Numbered from the stretch's first letter, positions 3,271 to 54,829 are shown. The stretch is DNA of 64,000 bases from an uncultured Clostridia bacterium (GCA_944351415.1 CALVPQ010000004.1:86-64085); one strand, 5' to 3'. Numbers and translations: made by a program. Notes: a model not told the origin generated them from the sequence alone.

Positions 3271-5400
3271 ATGGAACTTGAAAAAAATATAGATGAGCAA
3301 AAAACTAGCGAAACTGAAACTTCAGAAAATAAAAATGCAAGTGAAAATGAAAACTTAGGCGCAAATAGTTCTAGCGAAAACATAGAAAAAGTTGCAAATC
3401 AAGAAGATACCGAAAAGGAAAGCAAAGAAATCGGTCATTCTGATAAAAATGAAGATACTGATAAAGAAAGTAAGGAAATCGGTCATTCTGATAAGTATGA
3501 TGCTGGTGACATTCAAGTTCTTGAAGGGCTTGAGCCTGTTAGAAAACGTCCTGGTATGTATATCGGCTCAACAGACGAACATGGTCTTCATCATCTTGTG
3601 ACTGAAGTTGTTGATAACTCTATTGATGAAGCCCTTGCTGGATATTGCACTCAAATTGATGTTATTATCAATTTCGATGGTTCTTGTTCTGTTATTGATA
3701 ATGGTCGTGGTATTCCTACAGGTATTATTCCTAAGGAAGGCAAAAGTGCTGTGGAAGTTGTGCTTACAAAACTTCATGCTGGTGGTAAATTCGGTGGAGA
3801 GGGCTATAAAATCTCTGGTGGATTGCATGGCGTGGGTGTGTCTTGTGTGAATGCCCTTTCAAAATATATGAGAGCTGATGTCTATCAAAATGGACAACAC
3901 TATAAAATTGAATTCTCTAAAGGAAAGGTTATCTCTCCTCTTGAAGTTGTTGGAGCAACTGAAAGACGTGGGACAACCATAACTTTCCTTCCTGATGATG
4001 AAATCTTTGAAACAACAGTTTTCAACTTTGACACTATGAAAAACCGTTTCCGTGAAATCGCTTTCTTAAATAAAGGACTTGTGATTTCTCTTGAAGATAA
4101 ACGTGAGGGACAAGAAAGAAAAGAAACCTTTGAGTTTAAAGGCGGAATTATTGAATTTGTTGACTATATGAATAAAAATAGAGATACTCTTCTTTCAGCA
4201 CCTGTATACTTCAATAAATTCAACAGAAATTCAAAAGGCGAACTTGAAAATGAAATTGAGGTTTGTTTTCAATATAATGATGGATATAGTGAAGTCATAA
4301 ATGCTTATGCAAACAACATTAACACCGAAGAAGGCGGAACTCATCTTGATGGTTTTAAATCTGGTCTTACCAAGGTTATAAATGACTATGCTCTTGCAAA
4401 TAAAATTATCAAAGAAAATGAAAAACTTTCTGGTGATGATTGCCGAGAAGGTATCACTGCTGTTATTAGTGTTAAACTTAGAAATCCACAATTTGAAGGT
4501 CAAACTAAGACTAAGCTTGGCAACAGTGAAATGAGAAATATTGTTTATAAAGCTATGGTTGAAGAATTTGGTGACTATCTTGAAAATCACCCTGCCGAAG
4601 CCAAAAACCTTATTATGAAATCTATCACTGCTCAACGTGCAAGAGATGCTGCAAGAAATGCAAGAGAGTTGACAAGACGCAAAAGTGTGCTTGAAAGCAC
4701 TACCCTTCCTGGTAAACTTGCCGATTGTAGCGAGAAAAATCGTAAATTCTGTGAAATTTATATTGTTGAGGGAGATTCAGCCGGTGGAACTGCTAAGACT
4801 GGTAGAGATAGGCGTTTCCAAGCTATTTTACCACTTAGAGGTAAGATTTTAAATGTAGAGAAGGCTAGGCTTAATAAAATTTTAGAAAATAATGAAATTA
4901 AATCTATGATAACCGCTTTTGGTTGTGGTATTGGAAGTGAATTTAATGAAGATAAACTTCGTTATGACAAGATTATTTGTATGACTGATGCCGATGTTGA
5001 TGGTGCACACATAAGAATACTTCTTCTTACCTTCTTCTTCCGATATATGCGACCTCTTATTGAACATGGCCACGTGTATGCAGCAAAACCACCTCTTTAT
5101 AAAGTGACAAAAGGCAAGGAAGAACTTTATTTCTATTCTGATGAAGAACTTAATGCTTGGAAAGCAAATGGAAATGACCGTGGATACCCACAACAACGTT
5201 ATAAAGGTTTGGGAGAAATGGACGCTGACCAACTTTGGGAAACTACTATGGACCCTGAACACCGCATTCTTATACAGCTGACTATGGAAGATGCTATCGA
5301 AGCTGAAAAATATTTTAACGACCTTATGGGTGAAGATAGCGAGTTAAGACGTAAATTTATTGAAGAAAATGCTACCCTTGTTGATGACCTTGATATTTAA
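3271..5400 (+). CDS. gyrB: DNA gyrase subunit B
   Basis: [18 protein letters not shown], Toprim [44 protein letters not shown]. Carries an unusual ~75-aa acidic N-terminal extension. Confidence 0.97.
3403..3498 (+). repeat. in-frame 48-bp tandem duplication inside the gyrB 5' extension
   Basis: 3403-3450 and 3451-3498 encode [16 protein letters not shown] / [16 protein letters not shown] and differ at only a few nucleotides. Confidence 0.9.
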
Positions 5401-8701: not shown

Positions 8702-8796
8702 GAGCTGTGAAGCTAATTTTTAAAATAAATTTTAAAAATTATCAAAACAACTTGTTGTTTTGAAAGAAGCCGAGAGGCTTCTTAGCTTCACAGCTC
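8702..8796 (+). ncRNA. four-way-junction hairpin module (closing stem + 3 hairpins + T6); candidate structured RNA or branched terminator
   Basis: 14-bp closing stem GAGCTGTGAAGCTA/TAGCTTCACAGCTC. Inner hairpins at 8716-8739, 8742-8763 and 8764-8783 are all perfectly paired. TTTTTT follows. Confidence 0.5.
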
Positions 8797-15068: not shown

Positions 15069-16214
15069 ATGAGAAAAATTACTATGGTTCAATATGGTTG
15101 TGGAAAAATGAGTAAATACACAATCAAATATGCACTTGAAAAAGGGGTTAAAATTGTTGGAGCATTTGACATTAACCCTGATTTAATAGGCAAAGATATT
15201 TCTGAAATTATTGGAAGTGACAAAAAACTTAATGTTAAAGTGCAAGATGCACGCGAATTTGATGAATTTTTGAAAACTCATGATGTTGATGTTGCAATTG
15301 TGACTACTACTAGCGTTTTCGCTGAAAACTACCCTATTTATGAAATTTGTGCTAAAAATGGTGTTAATGCAATTTCTACCTGTGAAGAAGCTTTTTATGC
15401 ACAAAATTCAAACCCTAAACTTACTAAAAAACTTGATAAACTTGCAAAAGAAACTGGTTGCACAATTTGTGGTAGCGGATACCAAGATGTGTTTTGGGGC
15501 AACCTTATAAGTGTTATTGGTGGAGCTACTCATAAGATTGTTAAAATCAAAGGTAAATCCAGCTATAACGTTGAGGACTATGGTATAAGTCTTGCTAAAG
15601 TCCACGGTGTGGGATTGACAAAAGAAGAATTTCAAAAAGAAATTTCTGACCCTGAAAATATTTCTGACGAAGAACTTAAAAAACTTATCAATGCCGGTAA
15701 ATTCGCCCCTTGTTATATGTGGAATGTGAATGGTTGGCTCTGTTCTAAATTAGGACTGCATGTTGTAAGACAAACTCAACGCTCTGTTCCTCAATTTGCA
15801 AAAGAAGACTTGCACTCTTCTACCCTTAATATGACTATTCCTAAAGGTTATTGCACTGGACTTAGTGCTGTTGTTACAACTGAAACTAAAGAAGGCACAA
15901 CAATTGTTAGTGAATGTATTGGCAAAGTTTATGGTCCAGATGATTATGACTGTAACGACTGGACAATTGAAGGCGAGCCTACAACTCGAGTTGTGATTGA
16001 AAGACCGTCAACAGCAGAACTTACTTGTGCAACAGTGATTAATCGTATTGTTGAAGTGTTGGTTGCTGAACCTGGCTATACAACCACTGAACAGATGCCT
16101 GAAAACATCTATAAGGCACATAATCTTGATAAATATATTGAAATTGTTGATATTTGTGAAGATGAAAACTGTGATGGTCATTGTAAGCATGAACATAATA
16201 ATAGTAGTAAGTAA
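15069..16214 (+). CDS. NAD(P)-binding DapB-like / 2,4-diaminopentanoate dehydrogenase-family oxidoreductase (tentative)
   Basis: Rossmann N-terminus MVQYGCGKMSKYTIKYALEKGVKIVGAFD. GGAGG SD upstream of ATG 15069. Cys/His-rich tail CEDENCDGHCKHEH. Confidence 0.55.
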   Translation: MRKITMVQYGCGKMSKYTIKYALEKGVKIVGAFDINPDLIGKDISEIIGSDKKLNVKVQDAREFDEFLKTHDVDVAIVTTTSVFAENYPIYEICAKNGVNAISTCEEAFYAQNSNPKLTKKLDKLAKETGCTICGSGYQDVFWGNLISVIGGATHKIVKIKGKSSYNVEDYGISLAKVHGVGLTKEEFQKEISDPENISDEELKKLINAGKFAPCYMWNVNGWLCSKLGLHVVRQTQRSVPQFAKEDLHSSTLNMTIPKGYCTGLSAVVTTETKEGTTIVSECIGKVYGPDDYDCNDWTIEGEPTTRVVIERPSTAELTCATVINRIVEVLVAEPGYTTTEQMPENIYKAHNLDKYIEIVDICEDENCDGHCKHEHNNSSK

Positions 16215-16309
16215 ATTTTTAACACATATATAGTTCAACACTCTTTTTAAAAAAATAAGTGCGGGAAAATAAATTTATCTATAAAGGAAGTTGGTGCGGG
16301 AAAAATAAG

Positions 16310-16402
16310 GCGATTGAAAGTGCACACAAATTTTTGTGTGCCAAAAAGCATTTGGCTTTTTGAAAAATTTTAAAGTTCCTTTAAAATTTTACTTTCAATC
16401 GC
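16310..16402 (+). ncRNA. four-way-junction hairpin module in the tmk leader; candidate structured RNA or branched terminator
   Basis: 12-bp closing stem GCGATTGAAAGT/ACTTTCAATCGC. Hairpins 16322-16341 (8 bp), 16342-16362 (8 bp) and 16364-16390 (12 bp) are all perfect. TTTTT follows. Confidence 0.5.
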
Positions 16403-16422
16403 TTTTTATAAAGGAGAAAAAT

Positions 16423-17061
16423 ATGAATAAAGGTTATTTTATTTCATTTGAAGGTGGAGAGGCTTGTGGGAAAAGCACACAAATAAAGATGCTTAAAGAT
16501 TATATCTCTTCACTTTCTCAAACAGATAAATTTTTATTTGTTAGAGAACCAGGCGGAACACCTTTAACAGAAGAAATAAGAAGGCTTATTTTAAATTATG
16601 AAATTGACAAACCACTCGAAATGACAGAGTTATTGTTATTTTGTGCTGCTAGAGTTGAAGATGTTGAAAAATGCATAAAACCTGCCCTAGCGCAAGGTAA
16701 AGTTGTTGTTGCAGACAGGTTTTATGATTCAACAATTGCATATCAAGGAATGGCACGGCAAATTATGAGCAGTGAAGATATACTTACACTTACAAAAAAA
16801 ATTATAGGCGATATTAAACCAGATTTAACGTTTTATCTTAAATTATCCCCAGAAGAAGCTTTTAAAAGAAAATTATCTATGAATGGAGAACTTGATAGAA
16901 TTGAAAAAGAAAGTATAGAATTTCACAGAGCAGTTGCAAAAGGATATGAACTTATTGCATCTATTGAAAAAGAAAGATTTTATGTGATTGATGCAAGTAA
17001 GCCATCAGATAAAATCTTTAATGAAATTATTAAAGTTTTAAAAAATAAAGATATTCTCTAA
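16423..17061 (+). CDS. tmk: thymidylate (dTMP) kinase
   Basis: P-loop ISFEGGEACGKSTQ, DRFYDSTIAYQG. AAGGAG sits 6 nt before ATG 16423. The 16336 ORF start lies inside the hairpin module and is rejected. Confidence 0.92.
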   Translation: MNKGYFISFEGGEACGKSTQIKMLKDYISSLSQTDKFLFVREPGGTPLTEEIRRLILNYEIDKPLEMTELLLFCAARVEDVEKCIKPALAQGKVVVADRFYDSTIAYQGMARQIMSSEDILTLTKKIIGDIKPDLTFYLKLSPEEAFKRKLSMNGELDRIEKESIEFHRAVAKGYELIASIEKERFYVIDASKPSDKIFNEIIKVLKNKDIL

Positions 17062-17062
17062 A

Positions 17063-17093
17063 AAAAACATTAAAATTAAATTTTAATGTTTTT
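17063..17093. terminator. bidirectional terminator (tmk / M16 peptidase gene)
   Basis: AAAAACATTAAAAT-TAA-ATTTTAATGTTTTT, 14 perfect bp. Confidence 0.7.
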
Positions 17094-22135: not shown

Positions 22136-22210
22136 AACATTATATATTCTAAAAAATTATTTTATGTTTAAAAATTTTTAGATTTTATAAATAATAGTTG
22201 ACACAAAAAA

Positions 22211-22301
22211 GGTCTAGCAACCACACGCATGAAATGCGTGCAAAAACGCAGAATGCGTTTGGCAACTTTTGAATTTACTTCAAAAGTTGGGCTGCTAGAC
22301 C
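22211..22301 (-). ncRNA. four-way-junction hairpin module between ltaS-like gene and alr; candidate structured RNA or branched terminator
   Basis: Closing stem GGTCTAGCA/TGCTAGACC (9 bp, plus CC/GG after one A-C mismatch). Hairpins 22224-22240, 22244-22260 (both 7 bp, GAA loop) and 22263-22289 (11 bp). The T6 tract is on the - strand (22205-22210). Confidence 0.5.
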
Positions 22302-22374
22302 TGTGGAATGACTGAATTATTTATCATAATAAAATCAATTATAATCTCTTTTTATAACTTTTTTATAATCTAAG

Positions 22375-31016: not shown

Positions 31017-31093
31017 GCGCCGCTAGCTCAGCTGGATAGAGCGTTCGTCTACGGAACGAAAGGTCAGGGGTTCGAATCCCTTGCGGCGCACCA
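31017..31093 (+). tRNA. tRNA-Arg (anticodon ACG) with encoded CCA
   Basis: GCGCCGC-TA-GCTC-AGCTGGATA-GAGC-G-TTCGT-CTACGGA-ACGAA-AGGTC-AGGGG-TTCGAAT-CCCTT-GCGGCGC-A-CCA, a full 77-nt cloverleaf. Confidence 0.95.
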
Positions 31094-31118
31094 TCTTGAC
31101 TGCGTCTTGCAGTCTTTT
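31078..31118 (+). repeat. direct repeat copy 1 (tRNA 3' end + terminator, 41 nt)
   Basis: CCCTTGCGGCGCACCATCTTGACTGCGTCTTGCAGTCTTTT, identical to 31226-31266. Confidence 0.95.
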
Positions 31119-31225: not shown

Positions 31226-31266
31226 CCCTTGCGGCGCACCATCTTGACTGCGTCTTGCAGTCTTTT
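31226..31266 (+). repeat. direct repeat copy 2 (orphan tRNA 3' end + terminator)
   Basis: Identical 41 nt, 148 bp downstream of copy 1. No matching 5' acceptor strand upstream, so it is not a functional tRNA. Confidence 0.95.
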
Positions 31267-34332: not shown

Positions 34333-34359
34333 AGATGGACTTAAATGTCCATCTTTTTT
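34333..34359 (+). terminator. intrinsic terminator of the rubrerythrin gene
   Basis: AGATGGAC-TTAAAT-GTCCATCT followed by T5. Confidence 0.8.
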
Positions 34360-34392: not shown

Positions 34393-34493
34393 GGGCGAGT
34401 TTGCAAAAAAACTCAACAGAGTTTTTTTAGGCAAAACCTGTTTTGCCTTTAAAAGTTAAATGCTACCAGCATTTAACTTTTGCAAACTCGCCC
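34393..34493. ncRNA. four-way-junction hairpin module lying between two independent terminators; candidate structured RNA
   Basis: Closing stem GGGCGAGTTTGC/GCAAACTCGCCC (12 bp, extendable to 16). Hairpins 34405-34428 (10 bp), 34429-34448 (8 bp) and 34451-34481 (14 bp) are all perfect. A T-rich tract lies on the - strand side. Confidence 0.5.
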
Positions 34494-43594: not shown

Positions 43595-46500
43595 TTATCC
43601 ATTATAATCGGTATCCCAACTTAAGTTTAGTGTGCCAAGGGTTAGTAAACCAGATGCATCGCTATCGTTATTTATATCCCTATCTGTTCCTGAAACTTTC
43701 ATTCTGATTATAATCTTTATATATTGGTCATAAGTGAATGAATCAAAGAATGTGATTGTTCCTGCTGCGTCTACTTCCGCATTACCAGAAGCACCATCAG
43801 TTGCATCAAGTGTGAAAGTAAAGTAGTTTGTATAATTTGCTATGTCTTGAGGGTTATCTCTGTTAACATCAAGATTGCTATTTGCATATAGTAGACTGAA
43901 AGCATCACCCCAACCAAGCTTTGTAATTGTAGAAGTTCTGCTTCCTTCACCGCCATCTAAGGTTACGAATGGAATAATTTCTAAAGTTGATTCACGTTGA
44001 AGAGCATAGTATTTGCCAGTTACAAAATAGTTCTTAGATACTCTATAGTTGAATGGAGTGTCTGTGCCCTGTCCGCCAAAATCTATACTTACAATATAAT
44101 ATTTTCTTACATTATAGTATTGTCTAGCTTCCAGTAAAGATGCATTTTCAACATAAATAATATCATCTTTAATTGAAGTTATGCTTATTCTGTCTGCATC
44201 AGCAGCTGTCAGGCTTGTGCTACCAGTTTCATTATCAGTAGTTTGTGAACCATCTGTATTATCAGTTTTGTCTTCTACAAGATTTATAGCAAACGTTTCA
44301 CTATCTTCTGGTAGATATACGTTATATTGATAGTATGATGTTGAAACTATTTCTTCATTAATATCATCAGCGGTATTATAAACATAATAGAATGTTGCAT
44401 TTTGGTCACGTGGAATAATCTCTAATTCATCACCAATTTTAATATTTGTTCTTAGGTATTGAGATATAGAAATGTAAACCGTTCTTGCCCAACTATATCC
44501 TGTGTTATTAATATTTACAATAGCTGGAGTATCGTTATAACGTTCTTTCTCGCCGTCGCCATCAGTATCTCTATACAAATACAATTCAAAGTTTGTTAAA
44601 CGGCCACCGCTTACTAAAACTTCAAGCGTATCATTAATAAAACTAAATTCTATACCATCAGAATTTTCAAGGTCTTCGCCACCACTCATTATATCAAATT
44701 CATCAATTAAAGTAAAGGCTTCTCCATCACGGACAGGTGCTTGTTCTTCCTCAAGAATTGATACTTCTCTTGTGATTGTAACGTTTACCTTTAAATCGTA
44801 ATACTCAATTACACCATTGTTATTATATTCAAGTCTAACAACCATCTGAGCATCTGCGGTATTGCTTTCTTCAAATAAATCAGTGTTTTCAATACGTGGA
44901 ACTTGGAAAGGTAGATATTCCTGACCTGCTACAACATTTGGCTGTTCTGCATCGCTTCCTGGATTTCTATAAGGGTCTCTAAGTGCAGTAAGCCCATTGA
45001 AAACAGTCTCTCCGCCACCCACTTCATTTGAACTTGTTATAGTGGCAAGTGTGTAACCCGTTGTTCCACTTCTTGTTTGTATTGTTGTCTGCTGTTCTGT
45101 TGTGTCTGATTCTTCTGTTGAAAGTTGTGTTTCTGTGTCTGTATCTCCAGTTAAAACTGGTGCTTCTGTTGGTTCTATTGGACTATTAATAATTGGGTTG
45201 TCTTCCATATCATAGAACATGATTGAATCTACAGATATATAGTTTAGCATAGGCACTTCAAAATATTCTTCATCTTCTGAAAGATTTGGCCATTTTGCAA
45301 GATTTTCATCAACTTCTATTGTATAGCCACCTTCCTGTTTTGCAACTAATCCACTATCCGTGATTGATGTTGGGTCTGAACTGAATAGATAAGCCTCTAT
45401 GCCTGTGATTTCAATAAGTTCAACTGTGCCATCAACATCTTCTGGTGGATAAGTTTGTGCATTGATATAGTAGCTACTGCTATCATTATTACCGCCTTCT
45501 TCTATTTGAACACTAAGAAGTTCATATTGTGCACCAAAATCAAGATAGCCAAGTTCGGTAAGTGCAATAGTATCCGCATTTATTTCAGGAGGTGAATATG
45601 AAGACTGCAAACTGAAATATAGAATATAAGTGAAACCATAAGGGTCTACTGCTTCAATATAATAGTATTGAGTTCCAAAAATAACTTCTTTTACAGAATT
45701 AAACGTTGTATTTTGACCTTCTCTGAGTGTATAGGTTTTGCTATTTTCATCATATATCCAAACCCTATCATCAGCAGTGCCTTGTATTATTGCATTTAAG
45801 TCTTCGCCTAATTTTTGCCCTACATTTGTTTCATTATTGTATTCAACACCTTCTATTGTTGAACCTGGAACATTCATTGTGATTGTAAAGTTTGAAGTTG
45901 CAAGTTCTACCGATGTGTTTTCACCATTTGTATGTCTTACTGAAACATGACCTTCTTGACCTTCTGTAAGTGAGTCTGAATCTGTTAGTGTGAAGCTTGA
46001 ATATACATTTTGACCATCAACTGTGATAAGGCTGGCAATATTGTATACATTACCCTCGTTTGAAACTACTGCACTATTTGTATCAACTTCTACAATATTT
46101 CCGCCATAAGTTATTTGATAGTCTGGAACTATTTTTACAACAATATAAAATTCTTTTTCATAGCTTACCGAGCTATCTTTTATAGGAACAGAGTATGTGA
46201 GTCTTGTGAGAACAAAATCACCTTGATTATCTGCTCCAAGTGGCAATAACCTATAGTCATAAGCATATTGCCCTGCATTTAGAATAGCAGATGAGAAGAG
46301 ATAGACATATCTATTTGTTCCATCACTATTAGCTTCAATACTGAAGCCCTCGCTTGCAATACCATAAGTTGAAATATATCCATCAAGAATTGCAACTAGC
46401 TCGGTATCATTTTCGTCTATATCTGATACGTTATTTCTGCTTTTATAATTAACACTTTCAAATGTTAAAGTTGCTCTGTCTGCACCAAAGTCACCTTCAA

Positions 46501-49500
46501 TAATATATTCCCCTGTTGTTGGGTGGCGAACACCAAAGAGTTCAACCATGCTTTGTATTTCATAGTTTACTTCAAGTTCAATATAGTTATATAAACTTGA
46601 AATTTCTGCATCTACTGCAATATCAATACTTGGCATAAAATAATAGTTTAATGATAAATCCAAAATATTATTTGTGCTACCATCATCTTTATCAATTCCT
46701 TGTGTTCCATTGCCCTCAGTGTTATTAAATACAGGTATGAAGTTTATTGTATCTTCTATATAATTTTCAAAATCAAAGCCTGATAGTGCAATTCCATAGT
46801 AACTATAAGCAATAGGCTCACCATTTGCTCCACCATATAGAAGTTGGATTCTGTTTGTTAGAGCTATACTTGAGAATATTGATTGATTTGAATCACTATT
46901 TGCAAGTTCTCTAATATCCGCAAATGTTGCATCTTGTGTTGTTATAGTTTCCCCTGCTGTTACTTTGGAGATTATTCCATCTGTTCCAACAGTAAGCATA
47001 TTTTCTTCAAAGAGTAAAACTTCATAGGTTCCAACATAGACAAAATTGCTTCCATCTGTATTTGCCATACTGTAGCCAAGGTCTAAGTTTGCTATTTGCC
47101 CTGAATAACTTGAATCTATATATTGTGGATATGATGCATAGAATTTTATGCTTTCATCTGTGCTATAGCCACTTCTTTCAGCAAATACAACATAATACGA
47201 ACCTTGTGCTGTTACTTCATTGCTAAATATCACACTTGCCATTCTGTTTTGGCTAAATAATCCATCTGTTGAAGTTTTATCAACGTATATTGTTTCGTAA
47301 TTTACAAGTGTTTGGTTGCCACCTTCATCAGAATAAGTTCCGCTTGCAATATTGGCACTTACATAATTTATTTGGGCAACAACAGAATTTGTAAGAATAT
47401 AAACAGTATAGTCACAAGAAACTTCTTGATAAGTTATTCTGAATGTTACATAAGAATCAGTTCCATTATCATTGAATATAATTTCATTGCTACCTGATAC
47501 TGACGTAAAGGTGCCACGTCTAAATGTGATATTTTCATCAAGCCCTATCTCACTGCTTGGCAAGTAGTTCGAATAGCTAGTTACGTTATCTCCATTTATT
47601 TCGCTGTAGACACTTGCATTTGCCATTGAAAGAACTGTGATTGAAAGGTTTTCGTTATTTATTTCGGCTGGTGCGTTATTATATACAGCACTTCCTTCCA
47701 AAATCTCGCCTTGCATAATTGTGATTCTGTTAACATTGCCTTCAGAATTATTAAATGCTGGCTTATGGAATATAAAGTCTGTAAGAATATTTGTAAAGCC
47801 TGTGCCATCATCTATAAATTCTCTTGTTAATTCTTCCCCGTTAGGTGAAGGATAATTTGCTTCTAAAGAAACACTCTTATATACGTTAAATGAGAATGTG
47901 ATTGTGAATGTTTGATATACCACAGCTGATAAGTCTGAATTAGAATTATAGTTAAAGTATAATGAAACAATCATATTTACATCAACACTTGTGTCGCTTG
48001 CAATATAGTCTGTATGAATTGTTGTGCCTTCTATTGATACAAATGCTGGGCTTGAAGATGAGCCATTATATACAACGTTTGTATTGCCATAGCTATATTT
48101 AACACTAAATATACCATCTTCATCTATTATTAAATCTTCTCCTGCAAGAACAACTCCACCGTTTGCACTTGTTCTATATACAACGTTTTGCCCTAGAGTT
48201 AAGTTTGTGGTGAATGTGAAGTTTTGACCGTCATAAATACCACCTCTGAATGTGATTGTGAAACTGAGAGTTATATTATAACTTCTGATAAGGTCAGCAA
48301 CAATAAATGTTGAATTTCCATCAAATACTATAAAGTCTGTGCCATCAAAACCATTTATATCTTGGGTTGAACTTGTTATCGAATCTAGTGTTATAGTATA
48401 ATCACTTCCTGAAAGTGAGGTTTCTTCACCATTAAGTCTGATGTTGAATATATCTGTAAATTCATAAGAGTTTCCACCTGCAAGAGTATTATTATCTACC
48501 TTAACATCATAACTTGCAGTTGCATCTATATTTATTATAAGTGTTGCAAGATAACCTTGTTCTGTGTAGAGTGTGAACTCTATCTGTCTGTCGCTTGATA
48601 TATAATTTGCAAAAGTGATTGTGAATAAACCTTGATTTGCTTGAGATGAATCGTAAGTGAAAGATTCAACTGCTGATTCTACATTCAAGCCTATTTCTTG
48701 ATTTTCAGCACGTTCACCAGTCATTGAAATTTGAAGTATATCCCATACTTCTGTATAGCTTTGGGCAGAACCAGTGATATAACCTTCAAGCAATCTTATA
48801 TCCATAGATAATGTTCTATTATCTGATGATGCAATACTTTCTCTAGTAATATCCCAAGTATAAATTTCATTGTTTGAATCAGTTATAACTGTAGAGTTGC
48901 CTTCTTCAAATCTTACTGAATAATTATAGGTTGTGGTATTAAGAATAAAAGTATAGTATTGTTCGCCACCAATAACCGCTAAATCATCATCTTGAGCACC
49001 ACCTTGATAGCTGTGTTTAATGTTAATTGTGATTTGCTCACTGGTGTAGGCTGTGTAATACATCTGAGAATAGTCATCTGAGAAATAAATTCGTATATAA
49101 TTTGACCAAGTTTCTTCGCTAAAATAAGGGTTTTCACCAACAACAACACTTTCAACTTCATTAACGTAGCTTAAATCAGAGAAAACTCTTGTGCCATTGT
49201 ATATAAAGCTACCTTCACCTGTAATTATTTTGATTGTAAGAATATCGTCTGTTGCAATTTCAAAATTTTCAGTTGAATCAGGAGCTTCAGCTGCTTCCAA
49301 AGCTTCAGCAAAAACTTCTTCTAAATCAATAATTCTTTCATCTTCTGAAATGGTGACAAATTGAGCATCTGTTTTGAGTTCGCCATTGCTGTTATATAAA
49401 GCAAACCATACCTGCATTTCACTGTCTGGGATTACTTGAAGCTCTGTTATAGTGGTTTGAACTGTGTTTATTTCAGTTTCATTATACCTTATTTCTCCTG

Positions 49501-52500
49501 CACCTGAAATGCTTCTTATTGTGAATCTATCACCCCTTTCAACATCACCAAAGAGAGCTGTGAGGTCTATTGTTTTATCAAGTGTTGTGATTGTTATAAG
49601 TTGTGGCTGGCCATTAATCTCATCAGAACCATCTATTGGTGTTATTAGAACTGTCATATCACTTGTTACAGACACATCTAATGTGGTTATGATTTGTTCT
49701 TCACCACCTTCAACACCTTCGGTTCCTATTGAGTCTATTGTTATATTTCCATTTACTAAATTGCTATTGATTAAAGGTATTTGTTTTGTGATATTAAATC
49801 TCTTTTGATTTTCATTTAATGTTGTTGCACCAAATACATTATCAAGTTCCACCATATTTTCACTGTCGACATCACTTTCTAAAAATTCTGAATTTCCATT
49901 ATAGCCATAGACAGAATTATCAACAATAACGTCTGGAATGACTTTGAGAACATAATAGAATTCTCGACTGTCGCTTGAATTTGAAATTGTGTATCTTAGT
50001 GCCAAATAGAAGTTATCCATAGTGCTTGTAAGGTGATTAAGAGAAAGCTCTGCCACCCTTTCATAAACACCACTTTCAACTTGTTGTGTTTCTATAGAAA
50101 TTAATTTTTCAATTTCAGAATTTGCTTGAACCGAACCTGTTGTGTCTACAGGATAATAATCTACACTTATTGAAAAACTTGGATTTGAAAGCATATATAA
50201 GCCATTTGACAACTCTTCTCCAAAGGTATATTCACTTAAAATTTGTGTTACCTGACCTGCGGATACTGTGTCGTATATTCCATTTTCTATAAGTGTATTA
50301 GGTTCAGTCATTGCAGTTGCAAGTTTATCTGCATTATCAACTCCGCTTTCATAATTTACATAATCAAAACCAATAGATGAAATTATGATTGGCACATACA
50401 TTACTGCAATAGTTCCAGGGAACTCTGGTTTTTCACCATTGTTTTCATTATCTGAGCCAAAGTATACAACCATAAATAATTCTTCGCCATCAAGACCTTG
50501 GAATAATCTATTGCTTGAATTTCTTGTTGTAAGCCTTGTTCCTGTTAATGAAACAGCCATTCCTGTTTCATCTTCAACAATATGCCCTGTTGAATCGTAG
50601 GTTACACCTAAATAATTAGTGGTTGATTCTGCATTGCCTGATGTTGAGTATGTTCTTAAGTTGCCATAAATATTAAATCCATTATTTTCAGTTGTTCTTA
50701 CAAAATCATCATTTAAGAACCATGTTCCTTCTTGAAGCATGATATATTCAGTTGAACCTATATTTTGAACTTCTGCCTTTATATTATAGTCAGAATCATA
50801 AGATATAAGTGATGCTATATATTCATAAAGGTCAAAATTATCGCCTTCACTATTTGTATATAATCTTATTTTGATTTCAATAGAGCCAAGTTCCACTCTG
50901 TTTATTATAGTGTTATTAGCCCCACGAACTAAATAATTAATATATAGTGTTGTGGTAAGTTCAGTTGTGTTATAGTCGAATACAAAGAAAGCATCTTCAC
51001 TCTTTGTTATGTTTCCGTTTTCATAAACTAAATAATCTGAGAATACATATTCCACATCAATTCCGGTAATAGCCGTATCGACTTCGCTTCCACCAGCTGT
51101 TGACATTCTACGCAGGCTTACAAAATCAGATTCAACATAGTTTGTTCCACTATTTATTATATAGTAAACATTTTGTTGGTCGTATATAGCAAGGTCTCGC
51201 GTTACAACAAAACTTATTGTTATGCTTAATGTGAAGTTATTATCACCATCTGGAGCAAAGATTACTGAGTATGTTTGAGATGGCTCATTCCAAAAATCTT
51301 CAAATATTATCGTTCCAGCTGAAATTGTTTCATCTCCCATTGCGTAGTCTTTTACATAGAAAATTCCTACATAAGATGTTGCACTTTCTTCTAGAATATA
51401 ATTATTTCCACTTCTTACAATATAATAGAGTGATTCGCCATCATCATAGAGTGAAGCCAAAGAATTATCATAAGCTTGTGACAAGCTGTTTAGATAATTA
51501 TTTGTTACAGTATTTTCAAGTTCTAGTGAAGCACTTGCATATAAGGTTTCACCATTATTTGGATAATTTTGTGATGAAACTGATACGTTTGGCAAAAGGG
51601 TTAAGCTTAATGTTGAACTAATTGCCCCATTTTCGCCAGTATCTGAAATGGTAAATCTTATTATATGGTCTACTGAAAAATCTTTATTAATTAAAATACT
51701 TGTGATTGATTGACCACTTAAGGCTGCTCTTATTGATGCTGCAGTGCCATCTAGCCCTGATATTATACCCGTCTCACTATAAAGTGTAAGCATTCCATCA
51801 TATCCAAAAAGGTCTTCAATCATCTCATCGGTTATAGTGCTATCATTTAGATATTGTTGGCTGAATTGGAAACGAATATTGTTATATTGTGTTCTATTTT
51901 CATCTTCGCCAATATAAAATCTTGCAAGTGTGTGAAGATTGATAACATCTATAGCACCATCTGATTTTGCACCATACTTACTTACTGCAATATTTGAAAT
52001 ATCTGGTTCTTCTGTATAGTTATCGTTTGTAAATGGGTCAAGTGAATCTGTGCTTTCAGCATAAGTGATACCAACAGAAGAAATATTTAAGGTCATAAGT
52101 TGCCCATGAGTTAAACTTGTTGCATTGCCATCTATACTTTCAAGTGCAAGAGAAACAACAGCACCTTGGGCTTGTCTAAATGTGAAAGTCTGTCCGTTTA
52201 AGTTGATTGCATCGGTTGAACCACTTTCAATTATAAATCTCCACTCTCCAGCAAGAGTATCTGTTCTTTGTTTTTGGTCTGTTATAGTTACATAACTGTT
52301 ATCAACACCAAGAAGCCTAGTTAAAAGTTCGGATACACTTGTAAGTTGAGTTATTTCAAGACTGATAGTTGTTGTGAAATTACCGCTTGCATTTAAAATT
52401 TGATTTACATAGATGGTGTCTTGCCCTGTTATAAAATTGTTATAATCATAAGCACCTTCTGGGGCAATTTCAATATTTGTTGCCACTGGGCTATAAATAC

Positions 52501-54829
52501 AAATATCTGTATCAACTGGAACATCTGCCACCCAATCAATATTTGAATCGTCGTCATTGTTGTAGTTTAATATAAATTGATATATGTATATACCATTTGA
52601 AATTTCAATATTCATACCTGTATTTACGTTGATTTGATATTCAAGCATTCCTTCGCCTGTTGTTCCATCAACGGTAAATTCTCTGCCTGCTATAGAGAAA
52701 TATGATGTTATATCTGTGTTTTGTGTGCTTCTAATTATAAGACTGATATGATTATTATCAAGTTCTTCTTGGAATACAGAAACAGATTCTGCATTTACCC
52801 TAAATGCCACGCTGATTGTTTGTGTTGCACCTTGATTTATAGCAATTTCACCATTTACTTCTTGGAAAGCGCTTGTATCAATTCCACCAGCTTGAACTGA
52901 ATCTTGATAAAGTGATTTTTCGCAATTTACGGTTATATACTCATTGCACATCATGGCTATGCGATATGTTCTGTTACCACTTTGGTCTTCTTCATAAACA
53001 GGAATACCATTTTCTGTTACAACAGTTGCATAATATAATCTAAATGTTCCTGTGTTTTGAAGTGTGAGCGTGCTTCCATTTATTGCAAAGAGCATAAGAT
53101 TATCAATATCAGTTGAATAATAGCCTGTTAAGTTATAATTATATCCTGTTGCACCAATTATTGTATCTACAGTTGGAACGAGAGCATCTTTTTCACCCTC
53201 TCCAAAGTATGCAAAGAACACATAATCTTTATAAATATTATCTGTTGGGATTGAAACAAGTTCATCTAAATTAATTGTATATGGATTGATGCTTCCATCA
53301 GGGTTATAGTTAAGCATAACATTAATATCACTTGAATCAGCCCAAGAAATTTCTGATTCTGTGTGTTCTTCAACTGATAATGTAAATTCGTATATCAAAG
53401 AAGGTGTGCCAAATAATGAATAACCTCCATCTTCAGTTTCAATTAAAAGAACAACACTTACATTTATATTTGCATCTTGAAGTGATAATAAATCCCAATA
53501 ACCATAGTTCAAATTTGAAACGTTTGAGAATGGCATATAGTAGTATGTTCCATCTATTTCTACCCTTTCTCCACCACTTACAGTTAAGAAAGTATTATTA
53601 CCTATGGTTGGGTCGCCTTCATTATATTCAAATGAAAGAGCTATATTTGAAAGCATATTTTCAATAATGGCACCTGATGTTGAATAGACATTGACTCCTA
53701 AAAATTCAGCATTTAAGTCGTATAGATATTGATTAATATAAAGTCTCATTGTGCTGTCTGGATTCATTGAAATTGATGAACCTGCTTTGCTTACTGTGAA
53801 ATTATATACACTTGCTGCACCTATTCTTATATTTAATTGTGAAGAAACATCGGTGGTGGTTGGTGAATCCAGATACCCTAAAACTTGAGAATAGAAAAGT
53901 TCATCTTCTGAAGTTGTATACCGATTTTCTATTGCTTTTTGTGTTGCTGCATCTTGGAAAGTATAACCCATTAGTGTTATATTATCAATTGCTTGATTCC
54001 CTGCAATAAAGCTTACTTCATATCTTCCATCATATCTTGTTGCAAGGTCACTTGAAACTACGTTTAATGGCTGGTAGTAGGCATGTTTAACACGTCTGTT
54101 ATCCTCAGTAATTGAAAGATTATCTATATCACTATAGATATATTCACTTTTTGATGGATAGAAGATGGTATCAAGGGTGAATGCCTCGCCTGTTACAATT
54201 TGGTTTGTTGTTTCGCCGACTGAGTTGATTGCCACGGTCTCTGTCATGTAAACAGGAACGTCTACTGCTATTTGTAAAGAAATTCGGGATAGCATATTAT
54301 ATTCACTTTCTGCTTGTAGTGTGGAAATTCCGCCAACAATCCATTGAATAGATTGACCATAAGCATCAAGGATTTCATTGCCTTCACTATCAACAAGATA
54401 GTTATCTCTTATAAGCAAAACAGTGAAAGGTTGCCCAAGAGTGACAACTTCTGGAACTTGTATAATTCCATTGTCTATGTATATAACACCATTGTCATCT
54501 TCAGTTGTGTTTGGTTGAGAAATGTTTGGAAATGAAAGTGTGACTGCTGTTTCTGTGACAGGGTTTGTTGATGTTGTTATTGTTAAAGTAAAATCATCTA
54601 CTACTTCAAGTTGCCCTGTGGCTTGGTTATATAATTCTTCATCATAAGAAAAAGTTATATTCTCTGGATTTATAACCCTCTCTTCAAAACCGCCTGCAAG
54701 ATAAACGCCTAGCACCGTAATGCCAGATATAACGCCAACACCTGCAATAACTAATATAAGAGTGAGCCACAGTGGCCATTTTCTGCCACCAGTTTTCTTT
54801 GCTTTCTTTTCTTTTTTCAATCTTTTCAT
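43595..54829 (-). CDS. giant (3744 aa) membrane-anchored extracellular protein, unknown function
   Basis: Single uninterrupted 11,235-nt ORF. GGTGAGGTG SD. Basic N-terminus plus one TM (WPLWLTLILVIAGVGVISGITVLGVYLAGGF). The rest is T/S/N/Y/I/D/E-rich and beta-looking, with no LPXTG. Confidence 0.85.
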   Translation of the reverse strand: MKRLKKEKKAKKTGGRKWPLWLTLILVIAGVGVISGITVLGVYLAGGFEERVINPENITFSYDEELYNQATGQLEVVDDFTLTITTSTNPVTETAVTLSFPNISQPNTTEDDNGVIYIDNGIIQVPEVVTLGQPFTVLLIRDNYLVDSEGNEILDAYGQSIQWIVGGISTLQAESEYNMLSRISLQIAVDVPVYMTETVAINSVGETTNQIVTGEAFTLDTIFYPSKSEYIYSDIDNLSITEDNRRVKHAYYQPLNVVSSDLATRYDGRYEVSFIAGNQAIDNITLMGYTFQDAATQKAIENRYTTSEDELFYSQVLGYLDSPTTTDVSSQLNIRIGAASVYNFTVSKAGSSISMNPDSTMRLYINQYLYDLNAEFLGVNVYSTSGAIIENMLSNIALSFEYNEGDPTIGNNTFLTVSGGERVEIDGTYYYMPFSNVSNLNYGYWDLLSLQDANINVSVVLLIETEDGGYSLFGTPSLIYEFTLSVEEHTESEISWADSSDINVMLNYNPDGSINPYTINLDELVSIPTDNIYKDYVFFAYFGEGEKDALVPTVDTIIGATGYNYNLTGYYSTDIDNLMLFAINGSTLTLQNTGTFRLYYATVVTENGIPVYEEDQSGNRTYRIAMMCNEYITVNCEKSLYQDSVQAGGIDTSAFQEVNGEIAINQGATQTISVAFRVNAESVSVFQEELDNNHISLIIRSTQNTDITSYFSIAGREFTVDGTTGEGMLEYQINVNTGMNIEISNGIYIYQFILNYNNDDDSNIDWVADVPVDTDICIYSPVATNIEIAPEGAYDYNNFITGQDTIYVNQILNASGNFTTTISLEITQLTSVSELLTRLLGVDNSYVTITDQKQRTDTLAGEWRFIIESGSTDAINLNGQTFTFRQAQGAVVSLALESIDGNATSLTHGQLMTLNISSVGITYAESTDSLDPFTNDNYTEEPDISNIAVSKYGAKSDGAIDVINLHTLARFYIGEDENRTQYNNIRFQFSQQYLNDSTITDEMIEDLFGYDGMLTLYSETGIISGLDGTAASIRAALSGQSITSILINKDFSVDHIIRFTISDTGENGAISSTLSLTLLPNVSVSSQNYPNNGETLYASASLELENTVTNNYLNSLSQAYDNSLASLYDDGESLYYIVRSGNNYILEESATSYVGIFYVKDYAMGDETISAGTIIFEDFWNEPSQTYSVIFAPDGDNNFTLSITISFVVTRDLAIYDQQNVYYIINSGTNYVESDFVSLRRMSTAGGSEVDTAITGIDVEYVFSDYLVYENGNITKSEDAFFVFDYNTTELTTTLYINYLVRGANNTIINRVELGSIEIKIRLYTNSEGDNFDLYEYIASLISYDSDYNIKAEVQNIGSTEYIMLQEGTWFLNDDFVRTTENNGFNIYGNLRTYSTSGNAESTTNYLGVTYDSTGHIVEDETGMAVSLTGTRLTTRNSSNRLFQGLDGEELFMVVYFGSDNENNGEKPEFPGTIAVMYVPIIISSIGFDYVNYESGVDNADKLATAMTEPNTLIENGIYDTVSAGQVTQILSEYTFGEELSNGLYMLSNPSFSISVDYYPVDTTGSVQANSEIEKLISIETQQVESGVYERVAELSLNHLTSTMDNFYLALRYTISNSSDSREFYYVLKVIPDVIVDNSVYGYNGNSEFLESDVDSENMVELDNVFGATTLNENQKRFNITKQIPLINSNLVNGNITIDSIGTEGVEGGEEQIITTLDVSVTSDMTVLITPIDGSDEINGQPQLITITTLDKTIDLTALFGDVERGDRFTIRSISGAGEIRYNETEINTVQTTITELQVIPDSEMQVWFALYNSNGELKTDAQFVTISEDERIIDLEEVFAEALEAAEAPDSTENFEIATDDILTIKIITGEGSFIYNGTRVFSDLSYVNEVESVVVGENPYFSEETWSNYIRIYFSDDYSQMYYTAYTSEQITINIKHSYQGGAQDDDLAVIGGEQYYTFILNTTTYNYSVRFEEGNSTVITDSNNEIYTWDITRESIASSDNRTLSMDIRLLEGYITGSAQSYTEVWDILQISMTGERAENQEIGLNVESAVESFTYDSSQANQGLFTITFANYISSDRQIEFTLYTEQGYLATLIINIDATASYDVKVDNNTLAGGNSYEFTDIFNIRLNGEETSLSGSDYTITLDSITSSTQDINGFDGTDFIVFDGNSTFIVADLIRSYNITLSFTITFRGGIYDGQNFTFTTNLTLGQNVVYRTSANGGVVLAGEDLIIDEDGIFSVKYSYGNTNVVYNGSSSSPAFVSIEGTTIHTDYIASDTSVDVNMIVSLYFNYNSNSDLSAVVYQTFTITFSFNVYKSVSLEANYPSPNGEELTREFIDDGTGFTNILTDFIFHKPAFNNSEGNVNRITIMQGEILEGSAVYNNAPAEINNENLSITVLSMANASVYSEINGDNVTSYSNYLPSSEIGLDENITFRRGTFTSVSGSNEIIFNDNGTDSYVTFRITYQEVSCDYTVYILTNSVVAQINYVSANIASGTYSDEGGNQTLVNYETIYVDKTSTDGLFSQNRMASVIFSNEVTAQGSYYVVFAERSGYSTDESIKFYASYPQYIDSSYSGQIANLDLGYSMANTDGSNFVYVGTYEVLLFEENMLTVGTDGIISKVTAGETITTQDATFADIRELANSDSNQSIFSSIALTNRIQLLYGGANGEPIAYSYYGIALSGFDFENYIEDTINFIPVFNNTEGNGTQGIDKDDGSTNNILDLSLNYYFMPSIDIAVDAEISSLYNYIELEVNYEIQSMVELFGVRHPTTGEYIIEGDFGADRATLTFESVNYKSRNNVSDIDENDTELVAILDGYISTYGIASEGFSIEANSDGTNRYVYLFSSAILNAGQYAYDYRLLPLGADNQGDFVLTRLTYSVPIKDSSVSYEKEFYIVVKIVPDYQITYGGNIVEVDTNSAVVSNEGNVYNIASLITVDGQNVYSSFTLTDSDSLTEGQEGHVSVRHTNGENTSVELATSNFTITMNVPGSTIEGVEYNNETNVGQKLGEDLNAIIQGTADDRVWIYDENSKTYTLREGQNTTFNSVKEVIFGTQYYYIEAVDPYGFTYILYFSLQSSYSPPEINADTIALTELGYLDFGAQYELLSVQIEEGGNNDSSSYYINAQTYPPEDVDGTVELIEITGIEAYLFSSDPTSITDSGLVAKQEGGYTIEVDENLAKWPNLSEDEEYFEVPMLNYISVDSIMFYDMEDNPIINSPIEPTEAPVLTGDTDTETQLSTEESDTTEQQTTIQTRSGTTGYTLATITSSNEVGGGETVFNGLTALRDPYRNPGSDAEQPNVVAGQEYLPFQVPRIENTDLFEESNTADAQMVVRLEYNNNGVIEYYDLKVNVTITREVSILEEEQAPVRDGEAFTLIDEFDIMSGGEDLENSDGIEFSFINDTLEVLVSGGRLTNFELYLYRDTDGDGEKERYNDTPAIVNINNTGYSWARTVYISISQYLRTNIKIGDELEIIPRDQNATFYYVYNTADDINEEIVSTSYYQYNVYLPEDSETFAINLVEDKTDNTDGSQTTDNETGSTSLTAADADRISITSIKDDIIYVENASLLEARQYYNVRKYYIVSIDFGGQGTDTPFNYRVSKNYFVTGKYYALQRESTLEIIPFVTLDGGEGSRTSTITKLGWGDAFSLLYANSNLDVNRDNPQDIANYTNYFTFTLDATDGASGNAEVDAAGTITFFDSFTYDQYIKIIIRMKVSGTDRDINNDSDASGLLTLGTLNLSWDTDYNG

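Follow-up and report, generated by a model that had tools for sequence, protein, structure and literature searches.

A GC-rich base that abuts the U-tract is the hallmark of a terminator stem, and operational definitions of intrinsic terminators admit loops of 3-10 nt and stems of 4-17 bp. Other extragenic elements are palindromic as well. The REP/BIME elements of Enterobacteria stabilise the upstream mRNA, attenuate transcription and bind gyrase, and REPs share one consensus across the genome and have a link to RAYT transposases. In turn, the attC sites of integrons are folded palindromes of 60-140 nt with a conserved structure and a free sequence, some of them with branched variable terminal structures; they carry conserved R and L boxes and extrahelical bases, belong to cassette arrays located beside the integrase, and act as single-stranded DNA.

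In Clostridia, there are experimentally characterised cases in which internal terminators or 3′ stem-loops determine the stoichiometry of an operon, and in some of the internal terminators and stem-loops of selective RNA processing and stabilisation (SRPS) described in cellulolytic species the A- and U-tracts pair with each other (PMC9045158, PMC4423207). Furthermore, “clusters of hairpins” past stop codons have been proposed to terminate jointly (Gupta and Pal, 2021; PMC8355165). In the full-text literature that we searched, no description of closed multi-branch terminators, or of elements matching the one considered here, was found. Here we describe a four-way junction located just upstream of tmk, in a stretch of 64,000 nt from an uncultured Clostridia bacterium (hereafter, the window), and the class of elements to which it belongs.

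The junction between the dehydrogenase-like gene and tmk

The initial annotation of the window had described this element, called module 2, with a closing stem whose arms span 16310-16402. All the coordinates that it gave for the module agree with the sequence and with folding, and the proposed four-way-junction topology is recovered exactly by both the minimum free energy (MFE) and the centroid RNA folds (RNAfold). The module comprises 93 bases, in which a 12-bp closing stem encloses 69 nt that correspond to three perfect hairpins (8, 8 and 12 bp), and it is followed by TTTTT (Table 1). Its RNA fold has a predicted free energy of -44.9 kcal/mol, compared with -18.4 ± 3.1 in 200 dinucleotide shuffles, none of which was as good (0/200; z = -8.6), and the fold obtained with DNA parameters is identical. 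In the DNA fold, the A-tract that precedes the closing stem pairs with the TTTTT that follows it, the minus side having 7 T in 9 positions, so that the two flanking tracts lend the module the look of a bidirectional terminator.

Table 1. Positions of module 2 and its parts, of the adjacent genes and signals, and of the other modules in the window.
Feature	Coordinates	Strand	Basis or remark
Upstream gene, 381-aa NAD-dependent dehydrogenase-like protein (“DapB-like” in the initial annotation)	15069-16214	+	Pfam PF19328
Two GTGCGGGAAA copies, direct repeat 35 nt apart, just 5′ of module 2	16259-16268, 16294-16303	+	motif count
A-tract GAAAAA, 4 nt 5′ of the closing stem; T-tract on the minus strand	16300-16305	+	sequence
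Closing stem, 5′ arm GCGATTGAAAGT	16310-16321	+	sequence, folding, detector
Hairpin 1, GCACACAA-ATTT-TTGTGTGC, 8 bp	16322-16341	+	folding
Hairpin 2, CAAAAAGC-ATTTG-GCTTTTTG, 8 bp	16342-16362	+	folding
Junction A, sole unpaired junction nucleotide	16363	+	folding
Hairpin 3, AAAATTTTAAAG-TTC-CTTTAAAATTTT, 12 bp	16364-16390	+	folding
Closing stem, 3′ arm ACTTTCAATCGC, ending in ...CAATCGC	16391-16402	+	sequence, folding, detector
T-tract TTTTT, directly 3′ of the GC-rich stem base; proposed termination point	16403-16407	+	sequence
tmk SD AAGGAG	16411-16416	+	unpaired in predicted fold
tmk start ATG	16423-16425	+	unpaired in predicted fold
Module 1, 57 nt past the gyrA stop, then TTTTTT	8702-8796	+	widest orthologue set
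Module 3, between minus-strand genes (sulfatase-family gene, alr)	22210-22302	-	T-tract on minus strand
Module 4, between convergent genes	34393-34493	-	T-tract CTTTATTTTTT on minus strand

The possibility of a spike-in or assembly artefact was ruled out. The exact tmk protein occurs on 10 contigs, and in the six loci that were examined among them (ENA and Logan assemblies) module 2 is base-for-base identical (6/6); its presence on six independent metagenome contigs indicates that it is real sequence of an uncultured organism.

Concerning its genomic context, the protein encoded upstream matches the Pfam family PF19328 (DAP_DH_C) with 31.1 bits, for a cut-off of 23.3, and the orthologues of its gene (68-92% identity) adjoin uvrC. 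The stop codon of this gene, at 16214, is separated from the module by 95 nt. Downstream, the product of tmk corresponds to the Pfam family Thymidylate_kin (1.9e-44), and the tblastn alignments begin at its residue 1. The initial annotation had also placed the AAGGAG 8 nt past the stem, which the sequence confirms, and had considered a start at 16336 as spurious, which is upheld as well: the GTG found there only extends the frame upstream, and the alignments of the homologues begin at the ATG at 16423.

A promoter-like site was sought between the stop codon at 16214 and module 2, and none was found; thus, the statement that the module is embedded in the tmk leader is not supported. The sole promoter-like match near tmk lies within the module itself. 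It is a sigma-70-like TTGAAA-16-TAAAAT (16360-16387, scoring 10/12), whose first hexamer (16360-16365) spans the 3′ end of hairpin 2 and the start of hairpin 3, and whose -10 hexamer (16382-16387) belongs to hairpin 3. A start from this match would fall in the 3′ closing arm, about 28 nt 5′ of the tmk ATG. In the orthologues, the -10, located in the well-conserved 3′ arm of hairpin 3, is kept, whereas the -35 hexamer is not. Transcription of tmk from this site is a possibility raised by the motif match.

The direct repeat that precedes the module deserves mention. The motif GWGCGKGARA has three matches in the window for 0.24 expected, and the two GTGCGGGAAA copies are kept as GAGCGGGAAA and GAGCGTGAAA in L007 and as GAGCGTGAGA in L008, two of the nearest species, and are absent from the third, L009. 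Their membership in the element is uncertain; they could bind a protein, or be left over from something else.

Two further observations concern the neighbouring genes. The tail of the dehydrogenase-like protein (16150-16211 in the window) is rich in Cys, His, Asp and Glu and very variable in length among species (L021, L022, L031, L032), and the “gap” sequences downstream of the gene in these four loci are in fact GC-rich coding repeats; the tail may be a metal-binding extension. On the other side, tmk converges with an M16-peptidase gene, and the 30 nt that separate the two are filled by an AT-only perfect hairpin, AAAAACATTAAAAT-TAA-ATTTTAATGTTTTT (17063-17093), which looks like a bidirectional terminator almost devoid of G and C, of the kind that GC-dependent scanners miss. 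Since the gene pair is already served by this hairpin, the idea that module 2 stops antisense transcription coming from the convergent peptidase gene is not needed and was rejected.

Comparison with RNA databases yielded no match at the gathering threshold of Rfam 15 anywhere near the modules. The best sub-threshold candidate, RF01742 (lactis-plasmid RNA; 32.1 bits for a gathering value of 70), is on the opposite strand and has a different topology, and module 1 gave different weak matches, also below threshold and discordant in topology. ARAGORN detected no tRNA or tRNA-like gene in the module. A metagenome pattern scan based on the closing-stem arms (GATTGAAAGY-N55-85-RCTTTCAATC) was discarded because the pattern is too short: its 120 matches were all unrelated palindromes, many of them from one repeat family in one sample, with neither four-way junctions nor orthologues among them. 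In the Ga0126336 contigs (L087, L090, L091, L095 and others), there is an abundant and unrelated family of near-perfect long palindromes of 80-105 nt (GATTGAAAGCTGACGTTTCGAGCGTTAGCCCTTCGTC...), probably a dispersed repeat of some other organism.

A class of modules and its evolution

The initial annotation grouped module 2 with three other modules of the window, and this membership stands, given that all of them fold alike, with z values from -6.8 to -12.2 for the three sisters. Our own detector, run over the 64 kb, reports exactly these four modules. Module 3 is less perfect in fold than the others. Module 4 serves the minus-strand gene, the plus-strand gene having its own simple terminator at 34333-34354. 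The further claim that module 2 shares no sequence with its sisters was accurate only in part: it stands for modules 1 and 4, since their similarity to module 2 is not distinguishable from that of structure-preserving shuffles, and it has to be softened for module 3. Modules 2 and 3 agree in register at about 40 of 55 positions, with a score of 20 compared with 9.3 ± 1.9 for structure-preserving shuffles (0/200 as good). Among the remaining pairs, modules 1 and 3 are weakly above such shuffles and modules 1 and 4 are not; the closing stems differ completely.

Only about nine simple terminator-like hairpins exist in the window, so the four modules represent a sizeable share of its candidate transcript ends. 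Just 3′ of a tRNA gene (31017-31090), the terminator-like hairpin GACTGCGTCTTGCAGTC, with a T-run after it, occurs twice in identical form, 148 nt apart (31098-31114 and 31246-31262). Elsewhere in the window, a single ORF on the minus strand (43595-54829) encodes a giant protein of 3744 aa.

The search was extended to 80 loci that surround uvrC in GTDB species representatives; these are without exception metagenome-assembled genomes (MAGs) of uncultured gut Clostridia from human, mouse, rabbit, deer and rumen samples. We looked for closing stems with an interior tiled by perfect hairpins, and then folded the candidates. Together with the window, these loci yielded about 25 non-redundant modules, with a median length of 92 nt, a median closing stem of 11 bp (range 7-13) and 0-4 junction bases. 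The number of hairpins is exactly three in nearly all of them, with very few weak exceptions, and neither convincing three-way nor any five-way junctions were found among the modules of the window and the 80 loci. When the same pipeline was applied to controls, 615 kb of unrelated metagenome DNA gave one unrelated match and 680 kb of Markov-shuffled clade DNA gave none. Pairing across the modules is 99% Watson-Crick (1062 pairs, versus 8 G.U), and both strands are almost equally stable. Counts of strand asymmetry favour the sense strand (G.U 10 versus 4, GNRA loops 4 versus 0), in numbers too few to separate RNA from DNA. The same architecture is present 3′ of unrelated genes, such as gyrA, a sulfatase-family gene and an MBL-fold gene. 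Altogether, the modules apparently constitute a class of branched terminator-like elements, undescribed so far, in uncultured gut Clostridia.

Not every member follows the common pattern. The modules at L015 3824, L015 17648, L033 15718, L071 1618 and L014 12462 have no T-tract, and the family formed by L007 9645 and L008 9641 is located in a divergent promoter region instead of after a gene, with an outer stem extended to about 26 bp. There is weak sequence relatedness between non-orthologous modules of different genomes, as between L007 9645 and L014 12462. At L007 9628-9780 (about 9625-9775 in L008), a larger nested palindrome of -98.9 kcal/mol can be seen, in which a four-way junction lies inside the extended and bulged outer stem and is followed by a further GC-rich hairpin; this divergent intergenic region adjoins a minus-strand gene (L007 8581-9579) that is absent from the window.

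Among relatives, the distance between the dehydrogenase-like gene and tmk ranges from 3 to 257 nt, and an orthologue of module 2 exists only in the three nearest species (L007, L008 and L009, whose Tmk is 78-82% identical), in all of which the four-way junction is perfect (3/3). In the RNAalifold analysis of the four sequences, at least 7 of the 37 pairs of module 2 were changed on both sides, and one G.U intermediate is present. MAFFT and RNAalifold alignments put the replaced hairpins out of register, and single-sequence folds were therefore used as a check; they reveal that the apparently “broken” pairs are alignment artefacts and that every orthologue is perfectly paired.

The changes are distributed over the whole structure. 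The closing stem is identical in L007 and one pair longer in L008; in L009, two of its pairs are altered on both sides in a compensatory manner, G-C having become C-G and T-A having become C-G. In hairpin 1, GCACACAA of the window is matched in L007 and L008 by GCACGC/GCGTGC, a compensated change from A-T to G-C, and in L009 its place is taken by an unrelated perfect hairpin, AACTTGTCT/AGACAAGTT. The basal pair of hairpin 2 is C-G in the window, G.U in L007, A-T in L008 and G-C in L009, and the loop-proximal pair of hairpin 3, the arm with the best sequence conservation, is G-C in the window and in L007 and A-T in L009. The T-tracts of the orthologues are TTTT, TTTT and (ATG)TTTTT. To judge from these comparisons, selection is acting on the fold of the module, the junction being perfect in the three species despite the turnover of its sequence.

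Module 1 extends this picture, as it is kept in at least eight further species, with double changes in 9 of 23 scored pairs. In L010 (5363-5454) and L011 (5498-5584), the interior of the module scores 14-27 as reverse complement versus 5-13 in the forward direction. The six other orthologues align forward with each other in all but one weak pair, comparisons of the L016/L010 type aside. The module has thus been inverted in one lineage, with the closing stem and the T-tract unchanged. In the orthologue of L060 (about 3636-3790), the middle hairpin has grown to about 60 nt and the third hairpin is enlarged, but GGGCTGTGAAG/CTTCACAGCCC still close the module, with TTTT after them. Moreover, the presence or absence of modules varies among close relatives.

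Termination and the competing explanations

We favour the view, with a rough probability of 0.55, that module 2 is a branched intrinsic terminator and 3′-end protector situated between the DAP-dehydrogenase-like gene and tmk. The proposal of the initial annotation that it ends the upstream transcript is supported by the GC-rich stem base followed by a T-tract, by the position past the stop codon and by the plain terminators of relatives. Most modules lie 14-100 nt past a stop codon, and several start 14-31 nt past one. Their closing stems have 54% GC, and the outermost 4 bp 73%, whereas the inner hairpins, with 33%, are at the level of the genome (34%). Of 19 co-directional cases, 15 have at least five T within the 9 nt after the stem when the upstream gene's strand is read, versus 2 on the other strand, where composition predicts 3.1. 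The T-tract is on the upstream-gene strand at about 6 of 8 independent loci (P about 4e-4), and all four modules of the window obey the rule, modules 1 and 2 on the plus strand and modules 3 and 4 on the minus strand. In more distant relatives, both the site 3′ of gyrA and the one that separates tmk from the dehydrogenase-like gene show an ordinary hairpin with a T-tract or no spacer at all.

Module 2 presents the GC-rich stem base immediately before a T-tract on the transcribed strand, and lies downstream of a stop codon where a transcription unit would end, but it is not the simple short-looped hairpin of the usual definition. Consensus terminator scanners report only its inner hairpin 2, or nothing, so that modules 1 and 2 are missed as units. 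This is the first point against the branched terminator: a branched “loop” of about 70 nt is outside every operational definition. The second is that, with 99% Watson-Crick pairing and almost equal strands, there is little strand-specific RNA signal beyond the T-tract. Furthermore, several modules lack that tract, and the L007 9645/L008 9641 family is in a divergent promoter region.

The terminator would probably be leaky, given that the tmk SD is only 8 nt away and that no promoter-like site precedes the module. The same tight packing, with the next SD 8-10 nt away, is seen in L028, L029 and L030; modules squeezed in this way between co-directional genes must let transcription pass unless a promoter overlaps them. 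In the mechanism that we envisage, the three pre-folded hairpins would stand in for the usual terminator loop of 3-8 nt. The polymerase would transcribe the 5′ arm of the closing stem, and the three hairpins would then fold in turn, bringing the closing arms together; as the 3′ arm emerges, the 12-bp closing stem would zip against the U-tract, releasing some fraction of the transcripts. The perfect four-helix junction so formed, whose helices do not exceed 12-14 bp and whose free energy is about -41 to -45 kcal/mol, would leave a compact, exonuclease-resistant 3′ end. The transcripts that read through would carry the junction 8 nt 5′ of the tmk SD, where it could be an intercistronic stabiliser, and tmk would be expressed through this read-through or from a promoter overlapping hairpin 3. 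The structure of module 2, its upkeep through compensatory changes, its place in the class and its terminator-like position and composition are demonstrated by the sequences; it is from these features that we infer termination, leakiness and stabilisation.

Some of the same features have led us to consider that the element could exist at the level of DNA, as a structure-conserved analogue of REP/BIME or MITE-like repeats which would have acquired terminator activity only as a secondary exaptation, or would lack it. The nested inverted repeats would arise, and remain perfect, by DNA processes such as hairpin-templated repair, template switching or recombination of one closing arm with the other, and the element may act as a cruciform or Holliday-junction mimic, as a protein-binding site or as a supercoil sink. 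The pairing, Watson-Crick in 1062 cases and G.U in 8, the equal folding of both strands and the identical DNA fold would be expected from such an element, and the inverted interior of module 1 in L010 and L011 with respect to six other orthologues points in the same direction, as do the weak relatedness of non-orthologous modules (2 and 3; L007 9645 with L014 12462), the modules in non-terminator contexts or without a T-tract, and the differences in module presence between close relatives.

Nevertheless, no common terminal or core consensus, and no terminal repeats shared within the genome as in REP/BIME or MITE-like families, were found, most paralogue pairs amounting to structure-preserving shuffles. 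A strand-specific T-tract and a GC-rich stem base are unexpected for a purely DNA element, and the G.U intermediate and the GNRA loops, confined to the sense strand, argue against it too, in small numbers. No target-site duplication is visible at the borders of module 2. Orthologues persist at the same site, with compensatory changes, across species of about 70-90% protein identity, which implies purifying selection on pairing and not a recent insertion. A DNA-level origin, or a dual function, is unlikely in our opinion, and is kept alive by the near-pure Watson-Crick pairing, the strand symmetry, the missing T-tracts, the divergent family, the weak similarities and the inversion.

Termination could also be dispensed with altogether if the module were a pure RNA processing or stability “punctuation” in the operon of uvrC, the dehydrogenase-like gene and tmk. 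It would then block 3′-to-5′ exonucleases for the upstream cistron and, after endonucleolytic cleavage, 5′-to-3′ decay for tmk, setting the ratio of the two mRNAs as in SRPS. The intercistronic position of module 2 and of the modules of L028, L029 and L030, where a promoter could not be fitted in ahead of the next SD, the recurrent spacing of 7-10 nt between stem and SD, and the very stable and compact fold would all suit this role, for which there is a precedent in Clostridia, where the free energy of 3′ stem-loops is tied to transcript ratios (PMC4423207). Yet the enrichment of T-tracts and the GC-rich base are specific to termination and superfluous for an exonuclease block, module 4 lies between convergent genes with no cistron downstream of it, and canonical terminators occupy the same sites in more distant relatives; we thus consider this explanation rather improbable.

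A more radical conception, to which we grant a similarly low credence, is that these clade-wide, perfect four-helix-junction elements are selected for shape alone, tolerate inversion and are read by a dedicated factor, either as RNA or as extruded DNA, termination at the T-tract being one facet of their activity. In the RNA form, they would be a new transcript-boundary or processing signal; in the DNA form, a Holliday-junction mimic, a supercoil sensor or a recombination site.

That the module is an independent small RNA gene, about 95-100 nt long, with the four-way junction as its entire body and its own U-tract as its end, seems very improbable. The compact and stable structure, ending in a terminator-like stem and a U-tract, and the TATAAT-like hexamers located 10-15 nt upstream of some modules (L028, L029 and module 1) are in its favour; against it, some modules start 14-20 nt past a stop codon, no promoter motif is shared at a consistent upstream distance, for which reason the idea was downgraded, and the sequence turns over completely, which leaves no conserved single-stranded seed or binding surface.

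Finally, the stronger proposal of the initial annotation, in which a regulatory leader (a riboswitch, an attenuator or a protein-binding switch) would gate tmk, can draw on the closeness of the SD (8 nt) and on the conserved GTGCGGGAAA pair as a conceivable protein-binding site, but it is largely refuted on sequence grounds and hardly credible: the SD and the start codon are unpaired, the SD belonging to neither of the two coinciding folds (MFE and centroid), no alternative fold is predicted, a single unpaired junction base leaves no ligand pocket, neither an Rfam family nor an upstream promoter-like site was encountered, and an architecture shared after unrelated genes is not gene-specific. 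The conserved unpaired core and the mutually exclusive alternative fold that distinguish riboswitches and attenuators are not seen, and the sequence turns over freely among orthologues. Lacking support for gating, any effect of module 2 on tmk would be exerted only through termination efficiency or transcript stability.

Significance and relation to described systems

If the modules do terminate transcription, the definition of intrinsic terminators would extend to a closing stem and U-tract with a pre-folded “loop” of about 70 nt, and such elements would escape every current predictor and every Term-seq filter built on loops of 3-10 nt; this may account in part for the shortage of terminators in AT-rich, uncultured Firmicutes. 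Three hairpins giving a fully stacked four-helix junction would be a natural design rule, which attains about -40 to -55 kcal/mol at 31-34% GC with helices that are all too short for RNase III or palindrome instability, and could be useful for synthetic insulators. In turn, their inversion-tolerant evolution, of structure and not of sequence, would offer a clean test case for RNA- versus DNA-level selection on palindromes. The architecture of the modules is striking, rule-bound and apparently undescribed, and their function is likely an ordinary one.

The integron attC sites resemble the modules in that structure is kept while sequence is free. Unlike them, the modules are fully paired, with T-tracts, and are scattered among housekeeping genes: neither boxes with extrahelical bases nor a cassette array were observed, the stems have no bulges, and every neighbouring gene (gyrA, uvrC, tmk, alr) has an SD of its own. 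REP/BIME elements are the nearest counterpart at the DNA level, as extragenic palindromes after genes and between cistrons, in either orientation and with roles at the DNA and RNA levels, but the modules share an architecture and almost no sequence.

Among the proposed terminators, the hairpin clusters of Gupta and Pal are open tandem arrays whose frequency drops with the number of hairpins, whereas the modules are fixed at three hairpins, enclosed by the stem that bears the U-tract (PMC8355165). The internal terminators and SRPS stem-loops of cellulolytic Clostridia are, like the modules, stable structures between co-directional genes, associated with partial termination, upstream protection or both; in contrast, they are single stem-loops, some with internal loops, and none has been described as a closed multi-branch junction (PMC9045158, PMC4423207).

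The closest likeness is with canonical and bidirectional intrinsic terminators, with which the modules have in common the GC-rich base before a T/U-tract, the location shortly past a stop codon and the exchangeability at orthologous sites, to which module 2 adds its flanking A- and T-tracts. The difference resides in the three complete hairpins (about 70 nt) that occupy the place of a loop of 3-10 nt, and in the failure of standard scanners to report them. The element is most fittingly placed among intrinsic terminators and 3′ stabilisers, as an architectural variant that is new, specific to a clade of low-GC gut Clostridia and widespread in it.
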